Shown: piece by piece, positions 9,193 through 17,800 of the stretch | How positions within the stretch are numbered: the stretch's first letter is position 1 | Layout: every line of letters begins with the position of its first letter | NCBI GenBank assembly: GCA_044351075.1 | Contig: JBILGL010000001.1 | Coordinates: 1-28,129, forward strand | Length of the DNA stretch: 28,129 nucleotides | Origin: Isosphaeraceae bacterium | GTDB taxonomy: Bacteria > Planctomycetota > Planctomycetia > Isosphaerales > Isosphaeraceae | Direction: 5' to 3' | Program-made: the position numbers and the translations under genes | The notes under the pieces: model-generated | What the model was told of the DNA's origin: nothing | Seen by the model: the letters and a program-made list of their open reading frames with translations, nothing else | Database searches by the model: none

Positions 9193-9981
9193 TCAGGTGC
9201 CGAATTCGGTGCGTCGGCCATTGAGCTGGCCTTTTAGCCGTTCGATGATCGAGCTGTGCATCTGGCTGACGCGCGACTCGGAGAGATCAAGCGTTGCCCC
9301 GATCTCTTTCATCGTCAGTTCTTCGTAGTAATAGAGAATGATAATCAGGCGTTCGTTGCGGTTCAGGCCACGCGTGACCATACGCATCAGGTCTTTACGC
9401 TGAAGGCGGTTGGTCGGGTCTTCGCCCTTTTTGTCTTCGAGAATGTCAATCTCGCGGACATCTTTATAACTGTCAGTCTCATACCACTTCTTGTTCAGGC
9501 TCACCAGCCCGATTGCATTTGATTCGGCTGCAAGCTTCTCGAATTCCTGATGGCTCACACCCAGCTTGTCGGCAATTTCCTCGTTGGTGGCGGGCCGGCC
9601 AAGCTCTACTTCGAGAGCTTTTTTGGCTTCCTCCATTTTGGAATGCTTGCTGCGCACCAGCCGGGGCACCCAGTCCATCGTGCGGAGCTCGTCGAGCATT
9701 GCCCCGCGAATTCGCGGCACGCAATAGGTCTCGAACTTCACGCCACGCCCCAGATCAAAGGCGTCGATCGCGTCCATGAGCCCAAAAACGCCCGACGACA
9801 TCAGGTCGTCAAGCTCCACGCCATCAGGAAGACGCTGCCAAATACGCTCGGCGTTGTATTTCACCAGATGAAGATATCGCTCGACCAGACGATTCCGAAG
9901 CTCTGTGGTCGGGTTCTCCTTGAACTTCGCCCAGACTTCGCTTACGTCCATATCTACTTGGGTTGACATCCAGACCTCCAT
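9193..9981 (-). CDS. fliA: FliA/WhiG-family RNA polymerase sigma factor (sigma-28)
   Basis: DDLMSSGVFGLMDAIDAFD, KFETYCVPRIRGAMLDELRTMDWVPR, region 4 LTMKEIGATLDLSESRVSQMH. The start could also be ATG 9969. Confidence 0.93.
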   Translation of the reverse strand: MEVWMSTQVDMDVSEVWAKFKENPTTELRNRLVERYLHLVKYNAERIWQRLPDGVELDDLMSSGVFGLMDAIDAFDLGRGVKFETYCVPRIRGAMLDELRTMDWVPRLVRSKHSKMEEAKKALEVELGRPATNEEIADKLGVSHQEFEKLAAESNAIGLVSLNKKWYETDSYKDVREIDILEDKKGEDPTNRLQRKDLMRMVTRGLNRNERLIIILYYYEELTMKEIGATLDLSESRVSQMHSSIIERLKGQLNGRRTEFGT

Positions 9982-10327
9982 GTCGTCGCCGAGAGTCGCG
10001 CACTTCCTGTGCTATGCCTTCAAATGTCAAAAACAATCATTTCTGAAAATTCGCCTGTCAGGCTTTTTCAGATCAAACTGCTTGTGTCACCTGAGGAGTG
10101 ACCCCCGATAAGACCAGGAATCACCAGTATCTTTATCGTCATGACTCGATACCGGCCTTGATCATATTCTCGGAAAATTCCGCAAAATCGTTATTTCTTT
10201 ACAATCAGCGGACTGTTGGTTAACGCGGCCCATGTTTAACGGTCAAGTTCGTTCGGAAAGGGAGAATCCGACGCTTTTACGATTAAACCGGGTGATGATT
10301 CAACTGGCGGAAATCGATGGAAATTCG

Positions 10328-11386
10328 TCAGCCGGCACGCCGAGCTTTGGAATTGGTGATTTCCGTTGTATCGATGGTATCTGCCTGTTGAAATTGCCGG
10401 AAAAAGTCAGGCAATTCGGTCGAGGCCGATGTCCACTGCTCAAAATTGCAATGAATTTTTGTCGCCAGGCGTTCGATATCGCGGGCGGCTGTTGAAAGCC
10501 ACCAGCCCGGTGCCTGAACGACGGGGATTCGTGCCTTGATGGCCCGGGGCACGTCAAGATCGTCTCGAACAGAGCCGAGATGACTGACCGATAGCCCCTG
10601 AAACAGCCGCGAAGCCTGAATCAGCCGGTCTGCTGATTCATCGCCCGCCTTGTGTGAGCCCGCTTTATTGACAACTGTCACAATCTTCAGATGGCTGCCC
10701 ACTGCCCTTCGCAGGTGCGAAAGCAGGGCGTGGCTTGCGGCCAGCGAAGCTTGCTCTGGTGTTGTGGTCAATACCATTCCATCGGCCACGACGGCCAGAG
10801 TCTGGGATCGGGCCGTCAGGCCGCTGCCGGCGTCAACGATGATCCAGTCAGCAACCTGGCTGTCTCGCAGCTCAGTTACCACCTGGGCCACCAGCTCGTC
10901 AGTAGCCGGGCCCACCAGCCAGGCTTCGTTCATTCTAGCAGCGTGTGATCCAGCAAGCAGCTTCACGCCTTCTGGGCCTTCGACCAAGGCTTCCCAAGGG
11001 GCGACCCGGCCGGAGAGCACATCTTCCAGATCAACTGTTGGCCGTCGGTCGCAGATGATCTCAAGCTGCCCCAGGCCATAGTCGGCGTCAACCAGCGCCA
11101 CTCGCAAATTCTTTTTCGCAAGTGAAACGGCCAGGTTCAGGGCGAGCGTGCTTGTGCCTACGCCTCCCTTGCCGCTGGCCAGGCAAAGTACCCGTGTCGG
11201 GTGTGGAATGACTGCGTCAGACTCCGGGCAAGTCTCAGCCAGCACTTCCGCATCGTCGGAAGTGTCGGCCTGAATCGTCCAGGCTGAGTTGTTCGCGAGC
11301 TTTTCCGCAGACGAATCAAGCGGCTGAGATTCATCAGCAGCTTTGGCGGCAAATAAGTGTCGAAGCGATTCCGCTTGATCAGACAT
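10328..11386 (-). CDS. flhG: FlhG/FleN-like MinD/ParA-family protein with altered Walker A
   Basis: N-terminal DQAESLR (FlhG DQAxxLR motif), SGKGGVGTST, VDADYGLG, IIVDAGSG, TTPE and VVNKA motifs; lies upstream of fliA as in flhF-flhG-fliA clusters. Start placed at ATG 11386. Confidence 0.8.
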   Translation of the reverse strand: MSDQAESLRHLFAAKAADESQPLDSSAEKLANNSAWTIQADTSDDAEVLAETCPESDAVIPHPTRVLCLASGKGGVGTSTLALNLAVSLAKKNLRVALVDADYGLGQLEIICDRRPTVDLEDVLSGRVAPWEALVEGPEGVKLLAGSHAARMNEAWLVGPATDELVAQVVTELRDSQVADWIIVDAGSGLTARSQTLAVVADGMVLTTTPEQASLAASHALLSHLRRAVGSHLKIVTVVNKAGSHKAGDESADRLIQASRLFQGLSVSHLGSVRDDLDVPRAIKARIPVVQAPGWWLSTAARDIERLATKIHCNFEQWTSASTELPDFFRQFQQADTIDTTEITNSKARRAG

Positions 11387-11760
11387 GGCATCCCTGCCTT
11401 GCGTCATGGGGGGCGAAGAATCGGAATATTGCAATGAAGCAGGGCCCTGAGCCAGATCCATCCGGCATCATTGAAACAGTCTTTCATGGCTGTTTCACCC
11501 GACTTGGGCAGAATCATACCAATTTGACCAATTCTGGCAAGCCGATTTCACCAGATATTTCTCTTCGATCAGGCACTGCCAGAAAAAAGTCTGATTATAA
11601 CGAAAAAATTATGCAACAATGTAGTAAATGGGTAAAATAAGTTGATTAAAGTTTATTTGTCGATTAAAGATTATGAATAGTTATTGCCTGATCAATATGA
11701 TCGTGAGCAATGCGCCACCAACGTGATACAACCTGATTGACACCAGGAGTAGTTTTAACG

Positions 11761-13473
11761 ATGTTTCGGTCTTCGAAATTCTATTTTCTTGCGATTCTTG
11801 CGGGCTTTGCCAGCGACGCAGCTGCTTGTAGCGTCTGTCGCCCGGCAACGCTCAAGTGTGCGCCACGCACAATTGCCGCCCCTTGTGCGACGACCATTCC
11901 ATGCCAGGTTTCGGCCCCAGCCTGTGAAGTGCTGGTTCCCCGCACCGTCACAAAATTTCATAACGTGACAGAAACCATCTGCGAGGAAGTGATTGACACG
12001 CATAACGTTACGAAATATCGTACCGAAACCAAGACCGAAAAGGTTCCAGTGAGCCGCACCGTTTATGACACTGAAGAAGTCAAAACGAATGTAACTCGTT
12101 ATCGCACGGAATATAAGACAGAGACCGTTCCCGTTACCCGTACGGAATATGATTTGGTTCCTGTCAATACCGAAGTCACGCGTTATCGCACGGAGTACAA
12201 AACGGAAACCGTTCCAACCACTCGGGTTGAATACGACAATGTGCCTGTTAAGAGCAACGTGACACGTTATCGCACGGAATATAAGACAGAGACCGTTCCC
12301 ACCACCCGCACTGTTTATGAGCCTGTTCAAAAGACCCGTAACATTCAGGTGCAAGTGCCAGTGACGGAAAACTTTGAAGCTTCTGTCACCAAAACGGTTT
12401 ATGACACCGTCACCAGCAAGCAGAAGCGTTACGAGCCTTACACCGAGACGATCACGGTGAAGGAAAAGGTCATGCAGCCGGAAGTCTTCCAGACGACCCG
12501 CAAAGAGACCCGCACCGTGCATGTGCCAGTACAGAAGATAGTCACCCGTGAAGTCATGCAGTGCCAGGAAGTGATTGAAGATCGTGGCTGCTGGGTGAAT
12601 CAGGCCGTGCAGACAAGCTCTGGCTGCACAAGTGGCTGTGGCGTTTCCGGCAAGTGCGGTGGCTGTGGTGGCCACAAGAAGAGCCTCGGCTGCGGCTCGT
12701 GCGGTCATGTTTGTCAGGGCGTAACTTATGCCTGTCAGCAAGTATGGGTGTCACGTCCGGTTCGCACGTCGGTGCCTGTCAAAGTGCAAGTTCAGGACTG
12801 TGTCACGGAAATGGTCGCCCAGAAGCAGGAAGTTGAAGTTCCAGCCACCGAAACACGCATGGTTCCCAAAGAAGTCGAGAGAACGGAATGCGTAACCAAG
12901 ACTCGTGAAATTGAAGAACCTGTCACGCATCAGGTTGCCCGTTCTGTGGAAGAAAAAGCTCAGGGAACACGGGTTTCATACAAAACCGAATCCCGGGTTG
13001 AAACCTACACAGAGATGGTCGCTCGTCAGATCAACGATACCACCACGCAAACTGTTGCCGTGCAGGTGCCTTATCAGGAAGAAGTGACCAACTACGTGCA
13101 GAAGGCACGCGAAGTGAAAGAACTTGTCTCACGCCAGGTTGCTGTGCAGGTGCCTTACACCGAAACAGTCACTAATCACGTGCAGAAGCCACGCCAAGTA
13201 ACGGAAACGGTTACCCGCAAGGTTCCTTATCAGGTTCCTTACACAGAGACAGTGACATCACACGTTCAGAAGGCCCGTCTGGTAACAGACATGATTGAAC
13301 GGACCGTCTGCACGCAGGTTCCTTACACCGAAACGGTGCAGGTCAAGCGCATGGTACCCAAGACGATCACTAAGCAGGTTCCTTACTGCGAAACCGTCTG
13401 GGAACGTCAGGCCCCAGCCGCTGCCGCTGCACCGGTAGCTGCTCCAGCCGTCGCTCCTTCTGCCCAGAAGTGA
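11761..13473 (+). CDS. Exported Thr/Val/Glu-rich repeat protein with Cys/Gly-rich core (planctomycete YTV-like envelope protein)
   Basis: AGGAG RBS upstream of ATG 11761; signal peptide ending DAAA; VTRYRTEYKTETVP and QVPYTETV repeats; Cys-rich N-terminus and centre; Ala/Pro tail. Confidence 0.85.
   Translation: MFRSSKFYFLAILAGFASDAAACSVCRPATLKCAPRTIAAPCATTIPCQVSAPACEVLVPRTVTKFHNVTETICEEVIDTHNVTKYRTETKTEKVPVSRTVYDTEEVKTNVTRYRTEYKTETVPVTRTEYDLVPVNTEVTRYRTEYKTETVPTTRVEYDNVPVKSNVTRYRTEYKTETVPTTRTVYEPVQKTRNIQVQVPVTENFEASVTKTVYDTVTSKQKRYEPYTETITVKEKVMQPEVFQTTRKETRTVHVPVQKIVTREVMQCQEVIEDRGCWVNQAVQTSSGCTSGCGVSGKCGGCGGHKKSLGCGSCGHVCQGVTYACQQVWVSRPVRTSVPVKVQVQDCVTEMVAQKQEVEVPATETRMVPKEVERTECVTKTREIEEPVTHQVARSVEEKAQGTRVSYKTESRVETYTEMVARQINDTTTQTVAVQVPYQEEVTNYVQKAREVKELVSRQVAVQVPYTETVTNHVQKPRQVTETVTRKVPYQVPYTETVTSHVQKARLVTDMIERTVCTQVPYTETVQVKRMVPKTITKQVPYCETVWERQAPAAAAAPVAAPAVAPSAQK
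12007..12342 (+). repeat. Four tandem 84-bp (28-aa) coding repeats, N-terminal arm
   Basis: VTKYRTETKTEKVPVSRTVYDTEEVKTN / VTRYRTEYKTETVPVTRTEYDLVPVNTE / VTRYRTEYKTETVPTTRVEYDNVPVKSN / VTRYRTEYKTETVPTTRTVYEPVQKTRN. Confidence 0.92.
13042..13377 (+). repeat. Four tandem 84-bp (28-aa) coding repeats, C-terminal arm
   Basis: TTQTVAVQVPYQEEVTNYVQKAREVKEL / VSRQVAVQVPYTETVTNHVQKPRQVTET / VTRKVPYQVPYTETVTSHVQKARLVTDM / IERTVCTQVPYTETVQVKRMVPKTITKQ. Confidence 0.88.
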
Positions 13474-13503
13474 TTTGCAGAACGATTATTGACAACTACG
13501 TCG

Positions 13504-13551: not shown

Positions 13552-13631
13552 TCATTAAAGAACTCTTTAATGAGGAGGCAGTTCATTAAAATTTTTGGCC
13601 ACTTTTTTTAATGAGACTTTTTTGATTAAAA
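13552..13631. promoter_or_regulatory. Array of TCATTAAA(G/A) inverted repeats upstream of the Fic gene (putative operator)
   Basis: TCATTAAAG-aact-CTTTAATGA (13552-13573), TCATTAAAA-N14-TTTTAATGA (13583-13614), plus the half-site TGATTAAAA (13623-13631). Confidence 0.6.
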
Positions 13632-13663
13632 TGAATGTGTGATAAATTCAAAAGTGATCGAGA

Positions 13664-14836
13664 GTGGCCAAGCCATTGCGTATTAAAGACTTCAAGCCAG
13701 AAATGCCGGGCTCGTTTGTATCGCTTGCGAGCGGTGATCAGGCTTTTTTGCCGAATCCATTGCCGCCAGAGTGGGAGTTTCCGACAAGACTCTGGCCGAT
13801 GATCAGTGAAGCCAAACGATTGATTGGTATTTTAGATGGAATTGGCCGGGTGCTGCCTAATCCGGCGATACTTCTTCGGCCCACAGAAGATCGCGAAGCA
13901 ATTCAATCGTCTGCGCTTGAGGGCACTTATGCGACGCCGCGGGAATTGCTGCTTTTTGAGCTTGAACCAGAACAACGAGAAGATGAGCCGGATACAGTTA
14001 ACCGGTTTCGTGAAGTTTATAATTATCGCCTTGCCATTCAGCACGCCGTTGCAAGTCAACTTCCGATTTGTCAAAGACTTATGCGCGAGCTTCACAAGAT
14101 TTTGCTCGAAGGCGTGCGTGGCCAGCATACAGATCCCGGTCATTTTCGCCGGATTCAAGTCGCAATCGGGACAAATAAACGATTCATTCCGCCGCCTCCA
14201 CAAAACTTGCCCAAGTGCCTTGATGAACTTGAAGTCTATATTAATCAGGAATCTTCGTTTGACCCGCTGATCGACTGTTTTCTGGTGCATTATCAATTTG
14301 AAACAATTCATCCTTTTGTTGATGGAAATGGCCGCATCGGCAGGCTGATACTGGCTTTGATGATCCAGCGCAAATGCCACCTGACGAAACCCTGGCTTTA
14401 CCTCAGCGATTACTTCGAACAGCATCGGGATGATTACATACAGGGTCTTTATCAGGTGAGCACGCTGGGAAACTGGGAAAAATGGATTGAATTTTCGCTT
14501 CAGGCTACGATTGAACAAGCCAGATCAACCATCGTTCGTTGTGAAAGCCTGCTGGCTATTCGCGAGCAATTCCGCCAGCGCCTCAATGAAACTGGCGGAC
14601 ATGTAAGGCTACATACAATCATTGATCAAATCTTCATTACACCAATGATTCGAGTGACAGACGCTCAAAGCATTTTACAAGTGACATATCCAACAGCCAA
14701 ATCCGATCTCGAAAAACTTGTGAAAGCGGGAATTTTGCAAAAGCTAAATGATTCACCCGCAATTACTTACTATGCACCTGAAATATTCAAAGTGGCTTAC
14801 GACGACATCTCCAGTAATAACGATAAGGAGATTTAA
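13664..14836 (+). CDS. Fic-family protein (class II: N-terminal inhibitory helix, Fic core, C-terminal HTH-like region)
   Basis: Canonical HPFVDGNGRIGR active-site motif; SSALEG matching the (S/T)xxxE(G/N) inhibitory motif; C-terminal VTYPTAKSDLEKLVKAGIL helix-turn-helix-like segment; GTG start. Confidence 0.92.
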   Translation: MAKPLRIKDFKPEMPGSFVSLASGDQAFLPNPLPPEWEFPTRLWPMISEAKRLIGILDGIGRVLPNPAILLRPTEDREAIQSSALEGTYATPRELLLFELEPEQREDEPDTVNRFREVYNYRLAIQHAVASQLPICQRLMRELHKILLEGVRGQHTDPGHFRRIQVAIGTNKRFIPPPPQNLPKCLDELEVYINQESSFDPLIDCFLVHYQFETIHPFVDGNGRIGRLILALMIQRKCHLTKPWLYLSDYFEQHRDDYIQGLYQVSTLGNWEKWIEFSLQATIEQARSTIVRCESLLAIREQFRQRLNETGGHVRLHTIIDQIFITPMIRVTDAQSILQVTYPTAKSDLEKLVKAGILQKLNDSPAITYYAPEIFKVAYDDISSNNDKEI

Positions 14837-14839
14837 AAA

Positions 14840-17800
14840 TTACCTCGGGCTCAGGCCCCTGAATAATCCCTGGCCAAACCGCCGCGAAATCGGGTTTTGA
14901 TCCAGTGGGCTGCGGGGCGGGGCAACATCATCGCCAAGGGTCCGAAGGGCGTCGAATGTCGAAGGCAGCACATCCAGATGAAATTCAGGGAAAGCCGGCG
15001 TGCCGGAAATGCGGACCTGAAGAAGCTGCCCGGTGGCTTCCTTGATAGCATCCGAAAGCACGGGCAGCTTGAAGCGGTCGCGGCCATAGATCACTTTCAG
15101 GTGGACATCCAGATCGCCTCTGGGCGACATTTCGCCGTCGCCATCAAGGCTGAAGGCATCGCCCTGAAACTTGATCGGGTTAAAGGTCGTCATGCCACGA
15201 TCGATCTGAAAACCGACCTGGGCCGAATCAAATGCCGTTCTGGTTGTGGGTGATAAATTCAGCGCCTTCACAAACCGCAGAAAATCAGGCAGTTCTCCCA
15301 AATCACCCTGCGTAATCTCGGCACTTCCCTGGCCCTTCAGGTTGCGTGCATCGCTGCCGCGACCTTCCAGATCAATCTGGCCGGTCACACGCCCCTTGAT
15401 GTTCTGAGGGCCGGGCACTGTGCGGGCATATTGGGCCAGATCAAGCCCGGTCAGTTTAATCGAGGCCTGATACTGAGGCTCCTGCGCAATCTGCACATTC
15501 ATGCTGCCATTAGCATTCCCGCCCAGAATCACGGCCTGAACGCTGGGCAATTCCACCAGCCCCTTTTCCACATGCACTGGTGCACTGATGTGCTGAATCG
15601 GGAAGCCCTTAAGCATCATGTTTTCAATAGCCAGCACGCCATCGCAGGCAAACTCGCGGCCGTCGTATATGCCCGAGATATTTTCAACCTGCCCCTGCAA
15701 ATTATTCAGCATCCATCCAGCGTCAAACGAGTTGCCATTCAGCACCACTATGCCATTCTGCCAGCGACACCAGGCCGTGTCATCGGCCTTGCCTGACCAG
15801 CCTAATCGCATGTCCGTGCGGAAGGTGATCGCCCGGCCGTCGTCCAGCCGACGGGCAAAATGAGCCATCACCGGCGGCATCTTCTGCCGCAGGCCAGCGT
15901 CAAGCCGAAGCTCTCGTGCCTCGAGTGCCTTTGCCCAGAGGTCAAATTTTCCATCTTTTTCAAGTGTCACCTGTCCCTGTTGCATCGAAACATTTGAATT
16001 TCGAAACAGGAAATGAACGTCGTTCATGGCCACTTTGCCATTGGTCGAAACAAAAGTGCCCTGCACATGATCCAGCGGCAATTCCAGCGGTTTTGGTTGC
16101 TGGTTATCTTCTGAAGGTCTTCGCTGAATCACCAGATTCAGCCGCGTTTCAGCCTCTGGCTTTATGGTAATAATGCGATTATCAATCTGGGCGACCGGGT
16201 CAAGGTCGATCAGCACATCAACATCGGCCGAACCGATCGGATTAATCGTCCTCCAGGTCGTTTTCCACACTTCCGGCAGGCTCAGCCTCAATTGTTCGTC
16301 AAATGGCAATTGATCGGCATGAAGCTCAATGTGTGTGCGCAGCGGTGTCGGGCTGGTCACTGCCGACGCTGCCGGCTGTACCTGATTGCGCTGCTGGGCA
16401 ATTTCATGATGCCTGATTTCGCCATTCTTTTCAGGCAGGCCCTGTGTTCGCCGCCGCGGGAAAGGGGCCTGCGGCGTCTTTCGCGGGCCGATCCGCTCGA
16501 CCCGGCCTCGGCCACTGATCTTCGCCGTACCATTCGAGCCAGAAATATTTTCAAAAACCCAGTAGTCTGGGTGCAATTGCAGCGTTCCCTTCAGGTTGCT
16601 TATAGGATAAGGCATATCGGCCCAGCGGATCGAGCACCTTTCCATCAGTTCAATGGTCGTATGCACTTCCAGCTTGCCAATGGGTGGTTCGCCGGGCTTG
16701 GTCGGCGGCAGTCTGGTGATATGTGCCCTGGCCCTGATTTCACCCGTTGGCTGAAAAGCATCAACCACTCGTCGTGTGTCAGGTGGCAATGCATTGAGTA
16801 AAGTTTCGTCAACTGTCAGATTTTCCGCTTCAAACCGAAGATCGACCTCAGCCCTCGGGCCAGGCTTGCGAATCGTGCCCGTGATGGCTGCCGGGCGATT
16901 ACCCAGCAGCGTGCGCAGGCCACTTTCCAGCGGTGGTTTATCCGGGTTGCCCAGCCGGATCGTATCGCCCGACCAAGTGATCTGCCCCCAGATATGCTCC
17001 AGCGGATAGGGGAAAAATTCGTAGCAAATGGCCACGTCGCGGCAATCGGCATTGAGGCCGAAGCCGATTTCGCCGCCGGGCCGGTTTCGCACCATGCGAA
17101 TGGCCAGATTCAGCTCGCCCCTGGGCAGATATTCCACCCAGAAATTCTGCCACTGTTGTGGCGTCACGCGCTGGAGCCGCTGATCGATCGGCAAGTTTAT
17201 GGCACTCAGCGTAATATCCAGCGGATCAGTGCGCCAGTTGGTCGCACCGCTTCGCCCGGTGGCTCGCAGAATCGTCTTGCCATGATACGCTTCGGCGCGT
17301 TCAATGAGGAGCAGGTCGTCTTTGACGATAAATGTTCCACGAATGTCGTTGAGCGGGAAGGGCAGCTCAGCGCGTTGCAGCCGCCCGCGGAGCATGTCGG
17401 CCCTGACGCGGTAATTGGCTGGACGAATGCCGCCTTTGGCGATTTGCAGCGTGGCTGATTCCAGATAAAGGTTGCAATTGGCGTCGTCAATGCCGAGCTT
17501 TTCCCAATCATTTACCAATTCTGGCTTTAAGTCGCTGATGAGCCGCTGGCTGACCTCAAGCCCGATTACCGACCCGCCCAGCTCAACCAATCCGGTCTCA
17601 AGATTAATCGTCCCCTGAATTTGCAGACGTTCGGCCCAGGTGCCCTGAGCACTGCCATTGAATTTCAGGATCTGGCTATCTTTAGTCGATTCAATCGTCA
17701 GCTCTACATCACGCAAAACGGCAGGCGATGTCTGCTCTTTTGTCTCTTTTGAATTTTGGATGGCTGTGTGCTGGATGAGCTCAAGTGTACCGCGAGTGAC

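Follow-up and report, generated by a model that had tools for sequence, protein, structure and literature searches.

A candidate giant beta-hairpin in a Cys-rich repeat protein of an Isosphaeraceae bacterium

In this study, we analysed a stretch of 28,129 nucleotides (the window) from the genome of an Isosphaeraceae bacterium of the phylum Planctomycetota (assembly GCA_044351075.1, contig JBILGL010000001.1, positions 1 to 28,129 of the forward strand), and we focused on one gene in it, which encodes a putatively secreted repeat protein, P0001 (Table 1). We found that P0001 is made of two arms of nearly equal length, placed on either side of a loop rich in Cys and Gly. Our results indicate that the two arms are likely to pair with each other in antiparallel orientation. 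With less assurance, we also favour the reading in which this pairing takes place within one molecule, as a single two-stranded hairpin ribbon. A giant hairpin of this kind had been proposed in a first-pass annotation made from the sequence alone. The computational checks that we ran favour that proposal, and none of the outcomes named there as speaking against it was found.

Results

The composition of P0001 is extreme (96 Val, 89 Thr, 54 Glu, 38 Arg, 37 Lys, 37 Gln and 35 Pro among its 578 residues). Segmentation by composition delimits two arms, residues 67-287 and 331-554, with low contents of Ala, Gly, Ser and Cys and a loop of 43 residues between them. Together, the length-coupled arms account for about 78% of the protein. 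The Cys/Gly core described between the arms in the first-pass annotation was readily recovered, as nine of the 21 Cys and 12 of the 16 Gly of P0001 fall within residues 285-333. The motifs that flank the loop (W286 on one side, and W337 within Q-Q-V-W-V-S-R-P on the other) are conserved among homologues.

Each arm carries a tandem array with a period of 84 bp (2.7 copies in the N arm and 2.6 in the C arm), which bears out the equal 28-residue period and similar copy number reported earlier. The description of the arrays as two different repeat families holds in that they differ in sequence, but they are not wholly unrelated. Residues 200-240 of the N arm (window positions 12334-12456, outside the array) are similar to the C-arm repeat unit (BLASTP E = 4e-4), a resemblance that hints at one ancestral motif from which both arms were built. 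The residue positions cited in the first-pass annotation are all correct, with pair sums of 624 and a sum of 623 for W286/W337. However, the constant sum of 624 cannot be taken as evidence of pairing. The ten pairs reduce to a single fact, the same period with a similar copy number, because any conserved columns of two arrays with a period of 28 residues give a constant i+j (94+28k with 530-28k).

Moreover, direct cross-strand pairing does not work at 624. In the N arm, the counts at even/odd positions are 12/0 for Pro, 9/40 for V/I/L/M and 41/5 for Thr, whereas those of the C arm are 0/13, 48/9 and 3/31, respectively. The two arms alternate in opposite phase and, therefore, like faces meet only at an odd i+j, such as 623 or 625. 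This two-residue alternation keeps its phase throughout the approximately 220 residues of each arm, and each arm holds one Gly. The same pattern persists outside the repeats, with even/odd counts in the N and C arms of 18/1 and 2/19 for Thr, and of 7/21 and 27/6 for V/I/L/M. Such phase locking is what would be expected of uninterrupted beta-strands, and a meander of short hairpins or a disordered chain is hard to reconcile with it.

The complementarity of the arms was assessed with a pair score fixed beforehand, positive for hydrophobic-hydrophobic, opposite-charge and Thr-Thr pairs, and negative for like charges and Pro. The score peaks at i+j = 625, where residues 66-286 of the N arm form 28 hydrophobic, 28 opposite-charge and no like-charge pairs; at 624, the same residues give 24, 7 and 7 pairs. 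At 625, the score of 0.235 per residue is higher than in any of 500 repeat-preserving nulls, in which the C-arm repeat columns were permuted consistently (maximum 0.196), and higher than in the best parallel alignment (0.18). Of 16 sliding windows, 12 have 625 as their best register, among them windows that lie outside the arrays. By inspection, C82, C276, C285, C355, C525 and C551 face no Cys at either 623 or 625, and cross-strand disulfides between the arms were discarded.

Homologues keep to this rule: in P0145, P0023 and P0004, both arms have the same parity and the best registers are even (624, 536 and 872). In the homologues, the centre of the best register falls on the Cys/Gly core, to which we give little weight; this coincidence is partly geometric, because the overlap is longest near the middle of the protein.

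Structure prediction, coevolution and the arm lengths of homologues had been named in the first-pass annotation as checks on the hairpin, and all three came out in its favour. For P0001, AlphaFold2 (AF2) was run with an alignment of 45 sequences (A1; P0001 and 44 homologues). The model shows long paired strands around the Cys/Gly loop (strands 66-93, 133-204 and 209-292; loop 293-330; strands 331-414, 447-518 and 530-557), and its strand ends sum to 623. For the approximately 70 residue pairs that adjoin the loop (strands 209-292 and 331-414), the predicted local distance difference test (pLDDT) score is 84-90; within the arrays, the register is ambiguous by whole units. The shorter homologue P0017 (382 aa), run with an alignment of 52 sequences (A2), was predicted as one clean hairpin. 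A signal helix (residues 2-18) and a low-confidence linker are followed by a strand at 62-200, a loop at 201-219 and a strand at 220-359. The pLDDT is 80-90 along both strands, and the five models all score 69-72. The strand lengths of 139 and 140 residues agree with the single phase slip that we found in P0017, located in the C arm. Neither AF2 model shows a solenoid or disorder in the arms.

When the model was compared with solved structures, VIA-align returned nothing with Z >= 5 among 48,161 chains, and the best matches were an HU-like beta-arm and the pore stem of anthrax PA (Z at most 3.1). Foldseek searches of the PDB gave only long hairpins of oligomeric barrels, with TM values of 0.04-0.15 (phi29 tail, lysenin, anthrax PA pore, aerolysin and membrane attack complex). 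In the AFDB clusters and the ESM Atlas, other predicted long hairpins match the model, and the nearest ESM Atlas shape is a cluster of YTV proteins.

The arm lengths of homologues provide a further line of evidence. Among 75 full-length homologues with two arms, the median absolute difference between the arms is 4 aa and Spearman's rho is 0.85; after permutation, the median difference is 24 (minimum 13 over 5000 permutations). Almost all arms measure from about 100 to 224 aa, as exemplified by P0001 (221/224, N/C), P0023 (206/206) and P0004 (200/194), by a main class of 132-156/132-152, and by a short class of 116-122/114-117. In most relatives, the loop is 17-35 residues long. Close relatives reveal how the arms change. 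The open reading frame (ORF) P0002 leaves the end of its contig and is continued by P0046, which comes from a near-identical population and overlaps it by 67 nt (3 mismatches). The composite, about 72% identical to P0001, is missing residues 103-130 in one arm and 468-495 in the other, exactly 28 aa each. P0103 (79% identical and cut at its N-terminus) also lacks residues 468-495. Counted as complete units plus a terminal partial one, the 28-aa units of the long type number 3:3+1 (N:C) in P0004, 4:4+1 in P0145 and P0001, and 6:6+1 in L010, whose frameshift-broken gene was read across the breaks. In P0001, the arrays occupy mirror positions: at i+j = 625, residues 115-191 project onto 434-510, and the C-arm array actually lies at 440-512. 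As the two arrays differ in sequence, they expanded in separate events that nevertheless agree in unit size, number and place.

Two side observations concern these homologues. The long-type genes at L010:3001-5013 and L009:6001-7693 (ENA contigs) are broken by several frameshifts, past which the frames resume cleanly; this suggests assembly errors and not pseudogenes. In P0006 (759 aa, a JGI metagenome protein), the C arm is interrupted by about 250 aa of non-repeat sequence, with two copies of a domain of about 120 aa. Read by eye, the arms nevertheless measure about 197 and 202 aa, and the inserted domain would stand out sideways from the predicted ribbon as a globular module.

The genome from which the window comes is a metagenome-assembled genome (690 contigs, 85% complete) and holds two paralogues of P0001. 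The first (335 aa; contig C476, L002:961-1968, minus strand) is built in the same way, with a comparable Ala/Pro tail ending in E-Q-K, and the centre of its best antiparallel register coincides with its own Cys/Gly core. The second (499 aa; contig C427, L017:441-1940, minus strand) has basic repeats of the R-R-Y-T-V-x-K-P-V type in the N arm and acidic repeats of the Y-V-x-E-E-R-V-E type in the C arm. Its paired segments carry net charges of +19 and -17, respectively, which suggests that the two arms neutralise each other.

Covariation was analysed in the short family (A2), the same alignment that AF2 used, with an effective number of about 20 sequences. The AF2-predicted anti-diagonal is where the strongest pairs between the arms peak. 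We counted 18 of the top 100 pairs (5 expected) and 25 of the top 150 (7.4 expected) at a distance of up to 3 from i+j = 419-421. This enrichment is the maximum of 245 anti-diagonals, and the best parallel diagonal reaches 8-10. With gaps excluded and only low-gap columns retained, the peak stays at 417-421 (13 of 100 versus 4.7 expected; best parallel, 10). Altogether, covariation lends modest support to the hairpin register.

It has been known since 2008 that Cys-rich YTV-type proteins are major constituents of wall preparations from planctomycetes. No significant family was found for P0001 in Pfam and NCBIfam. In a Pfam-A hmmscan with E up to 1, the YTV family PF07639 was not listed, and just DUF7458 (E = 0.023, below the cut-off) and ArAE_1_C appeared. 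However, the A1 profile reaches PF07639-bearing proteins, including one of Gemmata obscuriglobus, at E values from 1e-10 to 1e-28, and P0035 is matched directly at E = 4e-6; the strongly biased composition may inflate both the profile and the P0035 scores. Many of the YTV-type matches have near-equal arms (168-191 and 165-194 aa) and are rich in Cys and Gly at the N-end, in the middle and at the C-end. P0001 shares the family plan of a signal-like N-terminus, two near-equal arms poor in Ala, Gly, Ser and Cys, and a Cys/Gly loop, which in the AF2 models of P0001 and P0017 is the tip of a single hairpin. It also carries the family motifs G-C-[WY] before the loop (at 284) and Q-Q-V-x-V-x-R-P after it (at 334). 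Like YTV proteins, P0001 is Cys-rich, putatively secreted and restricted to planctomycetes. Named matches to the family come from Planctomycetota, Pirellulaceae and Gemmata. The A1 profile matches five of 201 Planctomycetota species genomes, namely that of the window and four of the eight genomes of one family of the same class. By its sequence, the P0001 family is probably an unnamed, distant and Pfam-negative relative of the YTV wall proteins. The statement that YTV-type proteins are reported from planctomycete envelopes is borne out by the literature, where they appear in wall preparations of Rhodopirellula, Gemmata and Tuwongella (PMC8567305, PMC12673574). One YTV protein is among the planctomycete-restricted essential genes of Planctopirus (PMC10632474). 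In the literature that we searched, in which subscription journals are thinly covered, we found no description of YTV proteins as hairpins and no structural or mechanistic account of them.

The remaining features of P0001 are listed in Table 1. The true start is likely the ATG at position 11761 (M9), and residues 9-30 are probably a Sec signal peptide. The Ala-x-Ala-Cys junction at its end is also present in relatives, and the equivalent segment of P0017 is the helix modelled at residues 2-18. At the other end of the protein, most C-termini of the family are rich in Ala, Pro, Ser and Gln, and [S/T]-[P/A]-Q is conserved among their final 2-6 residues (as in A-S-P-Q, S-P-Q-G-G-L, S-T-Q-A-G-H and S-A-Q-K). 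This motif could be a sorting or cross-linking signal. A C-terminal Lys that links to peptidoglycan, as in Lpp, was rejected as a family feature, as Lys ends just 13 of 101 tails.

Table 1. Features of the P0001 gene and protein, with their positions in the window
Feature	Position	Strand	Remarks
ORF P0001, 578 aa	11737..13473	+	Span takes in the stop codon
Putative Sec signal peptide, aa 9-30	11761..11826	+	A-A-A end directly before C31; sequence reading
Cys cluster at the mature N-terminus, aa 31-63, 6 Cys	11827..11925	+	Open end of the predicted hairpin; low pLDDT
N arm, aa 66-287, ~221 aa, one predicted continuous beta-strand	11932..12597	+	Segmentation, AF2, alternation phase
N-arm 84-bp array, inside four 28-aa Y-R-T-E units (~aa 94-205)	12079..12308	+	Tandem Repeats Finder
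Cys/Gly-rich loop, predicted hairpin tip, aa 288-330, between W286 and W337	12598..12726	+	Sequence, AF2
C arm, aa 331-557, ~224 aa, predicted returning strand	12727..13407	+	Segmentation, AF2, opposite parity to N arm
C-arm 84-bp array, V-P-Y-T-E-T units, aa 440-512	13054..13272	+	Tandem Repeats Finder
Ala/Pro-rich C-terminal tail, aa 558-578, final S-A-Q-K	13408..13470	+	Sequence

Upstream of the P0001 gene, on the opposite strand, lie genes for an FlhG/MinD-like ATPase and a FliA-like sigma factor (9193-11461), whereas a Fic gene and one for an AsmA-like protein lie downstream. The vicinity also holds DUF1559 and N-methyl genes, of a kind typical of planctomycetes. In the closest relative (L004/L005), the sigma factor and ATPase neighbours are conserved and an SRP54/FlhF-like gene follows the hairpin gene, so that the latter lies between flhF-like and flhG-like genes on the opposite strand. 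A flagellar role was nevertheless rejected as a family-wide clue: the fliA/flhG-like synteny is common only to the closest relative, and this neighbourhood is not a family trait because more distant members adjoin an NYN-domain gene and a paralogue instead, often as a tandem of short (~380 aa) and long (~575 aa) paralogues. At L007:6001-8950 and L009:4763-7693, a tandem pair of about 381 and 575 aa follows a divergent NYN/OST-HTH gene, and a serpin gene lies beyond that gene on the upstream side.

A scan for promoters and terminators gave nothing convincing on the plus-strand flanks of the P0001 gene. Near-identical DNA is found in many lake-water metagenomes. Assembled contigs from three lake metatranscriptome libraries, a non-quantitative type of evidence, cover positions 11695-13500 and the fliA-like gene, and are nearly identical to the window (a single base differs, in one run). 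The P0001 gene is very probably transcribed in situ, because these RNA contigs leave 13557-15500 (the Fic and AsmA-like genes) without coverage, whereas a DNA run covers the whole stretch evenly.

Discussion

Our results point to P0001 as a probably secreted, Cys-rich envelope protein of a freshwater planctomycete with an unusual architecture. Past the signal peptide and the segment with six Cys, the arm of about 221 residues would run outward as one uninterrupted beta-strand. The chain would turn in the 43-residue Cys/Gly loop, and the arm of about 224 residues would return antiparallel to the first to complete a two-stranded ribbon. At 0.33-0.35 nm per residue, the ribbon would be about 73-77 nm long. 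One of its faces would display Val and cross-strand salt bridges, and the other Thr, Tyr, Gln and all the Pro. Its length would be set by matched 28-residue units, one per arm, each adding about 9.5 nm. We infer that the rod serves as an envelope strut or spacer formed by pairing within one chain, with the Cys clusters at both ends cross-linking neighbours.

Several observations weigh against this picture. All the support for a giant hairpin is computational, and a function as an envelope structural rod is proposed by analogy alone. The P0001 model has a mean pLDDT of 59, with values below 50 over residues ~84-140, 415-445 and 511-539, and over most of the arrays. Its middle strand pair sums to 651, with one C-arm unit looped out and the register shifted by 28. 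AF2 gives 623, the pair score gives 625 and parity only an odd number, so that the exact register is not fixed. Pro is involved in about 24 of the paired positions. In the homologues of about 380 aa, the pair score is no better for antiparallel than for parallel alignment (22 versus 10, p = 0.14). Part of the covariation enrichment is due to gaps, as it drops from about 3.6-fold to about 2.8-fold when these are excluded, and the mean mutual information with average product correction on the predicted anti-diagonal has a z of about 1.3, the top value being at 451 (z = 2.9). The arm-length statistics overstate independence because the homologues share kinship, and P0109, P0130 and P0136, which are classical Cys-rich YTV-type proteins, have unequal segments. 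Finally, no solved protein was found with an isolated two-stranded ribbon of this length, and the best PDB matches are short beta-arms, or hairpins that form part of oligomeric barrels.

This last point bears directly on an alternative that we consider unlikely and still take seriously, in which the antiparallel arms pair between molecules, as swapped dimers or head-to-tail polymers, or else build a multi-stranded sheet, a fibril or a barrel tube. Every PDB match from Foldseek is a long hairpin inside an oligomeric barrel. A lone two-stranded ribbon would have no hydrophobic core, and its Val-rich face would favour packing on another ribbon. The equal arms, their complementarity and the covariation fit pairing between chains as well as within one, and sequence alone does not distinguish the two. 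What tips the balance towards a single chain is that the AF2 monomer models close the hairpin within the chain with high confidence, and that the loop is short in most relatives. In addition, one face of the arms is highly charged and the other polar, unlike a membrane-spanning stem, and neither a toxin domain nor a cap or receptor domain matched P0001 in Pfam or NCBIfam. A dimer prediction with two copies of residues 209-414 scored 0.06, which neither supports pairing between molecules nor argues against it.

The single hairpin could also be an artefact of modelling, the true state being disorder or another fold, such as a beta-solenoid or a meander of 14-residue strands, with arms kept equal by duplication and concerted evolution. 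We regard this as improbable. The weak similarity between the arms (E = 4e-4), the half-period of 14 residues that shows in the scores at register 611 and the low confidence in the repeat region of P0001 are in line with such an origin. Moreover, AF2 is prone to long hairpins for this kind of composition, as seen in the alveolin and inner membrane complex (IMC) matches among the AFDB clusters, and an even period keeps the parity of alternation through regular turns. However, parity persists in the non-repeat parts, and Gly and turn motifs are almost absent from the arms. The arrays are unlike in sequence and yet equal in unit length, copy number and mirror position. Duplication alone does not predict exact paired indels of 28 residues in a relative that is 72% identical, nor does it predict 3:3, 4:4 and 6:6 as the unit counts of different lineages. 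In the C427 paralogue, the charges of the two arms complement each other, and covariation peaks on the anti-diagonal instead of the parallel diagonal expected from duplication.

A third possibility, that the Cys/Gly/His core is a metal or iron-sulfur site for which the arms are mere spacers, is very improbable: there are C-x3-C, C-x2-C and G-C-G patterns with His within residues 297-333, and some homologues and AFDB matches are automatically named "ferredoxin", but no ferredoxin, 4Fe-4S or metal-binding family matched P0001 in Pfam or NCBIfam, disulfides are likelier because the protein is exported, P0004 and P0023 keep two arms with few or no Cys in the loop, and conserved, length-coupled arms make up most of the protein.

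Comparison with known systems helps to place the predicted hairpin. P0001 resembles the YTV proteins (PF07639) in being a secreted planctomycete repeat protein rich in Cys, Thr and Val, and is probably related to them, judging by the A1 profile, the ESM Atlas shape and the two near-equal arms of many YTV-type matches. Unlike them, it has no Pfam YTV match, its Cys are confined to the two ends instead of occurring throughout the repeats, and its units are different 28-aa motifs. The stems of beta-pore-forming toxins and the knobs of phage tails (anthrax PA, lysenin, aerolysin, phi29 gp9) contain the longest solved beta-hairpins and were the only PDB matches. However, they have about 30-50 residues per strand, lie inside oligomeric barrels and are attached to globular domains, whereas the arms of P0001 are charged or polar on both faces and bear no sequence or domain relation to them. 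Alveolins and articulins, from the membrane skeletons of protists, also have short repeats rich in Val, Pro, Glu and Lys, and their AFDB models, likewise long hairpins, match residues 200-440 of the P0001 model (identity 9-17%, low TM-scores). These proteins are eukaryotic and cytoplasmic, and their long hairpins are also predictions.

Elongated envelope rods of beta-structure without a conventional hydrophobic core are known from the G5-E repeats of SasG/Aap and from the central sheet of OspA, with a length governed by repeat number. Rods of the SasG/Aap type are built from small three-stranded domains arranged head to tail, and lengthening them needs one insertion. P0001 is instead predicted as one hairpin, for which two matched insertions would be needed, and it has no match to the Pfam G5 domain, although one AFDB cluster match to the model is automatically named a G5 domain protein. 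Lpp, which is lipidated and attached to peptidoglycan, forms a trimeric alpha-helical coiled coil measuring about 8 nm. As an envelope rod whose length is set by the length of its sequence, it provides the analogy for the proposed role of P0001: the predicted ribbons would be the beta-structure counterpart of coiled-coil spacers such as Lpp in the enlarged periplasm or wall of planctomycetes.

Carried one step further, and only tentatively, the predicted hairpins may be length-programmable rods, the paralogues measuring about 40, 68 and 74 nm, which are cross-linked through Cys and set the distance or the stiffness of the planctomycete periplasm or wall; the longest would be the longest beta-hairpin known. 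If single ribbons of 35-90 nm do exist, they would represent a new class of protein architecture without a solved analogue, and a natural case in which a length constraint forces matched insertions at two distant sites of a gene. Such rods might also serve protein designers as stiff, length-tunable spacers at the nanoscale. For planctomycetes themselves, they would offer a concrete model for rigidity or spacing in a protein-rich envelope.

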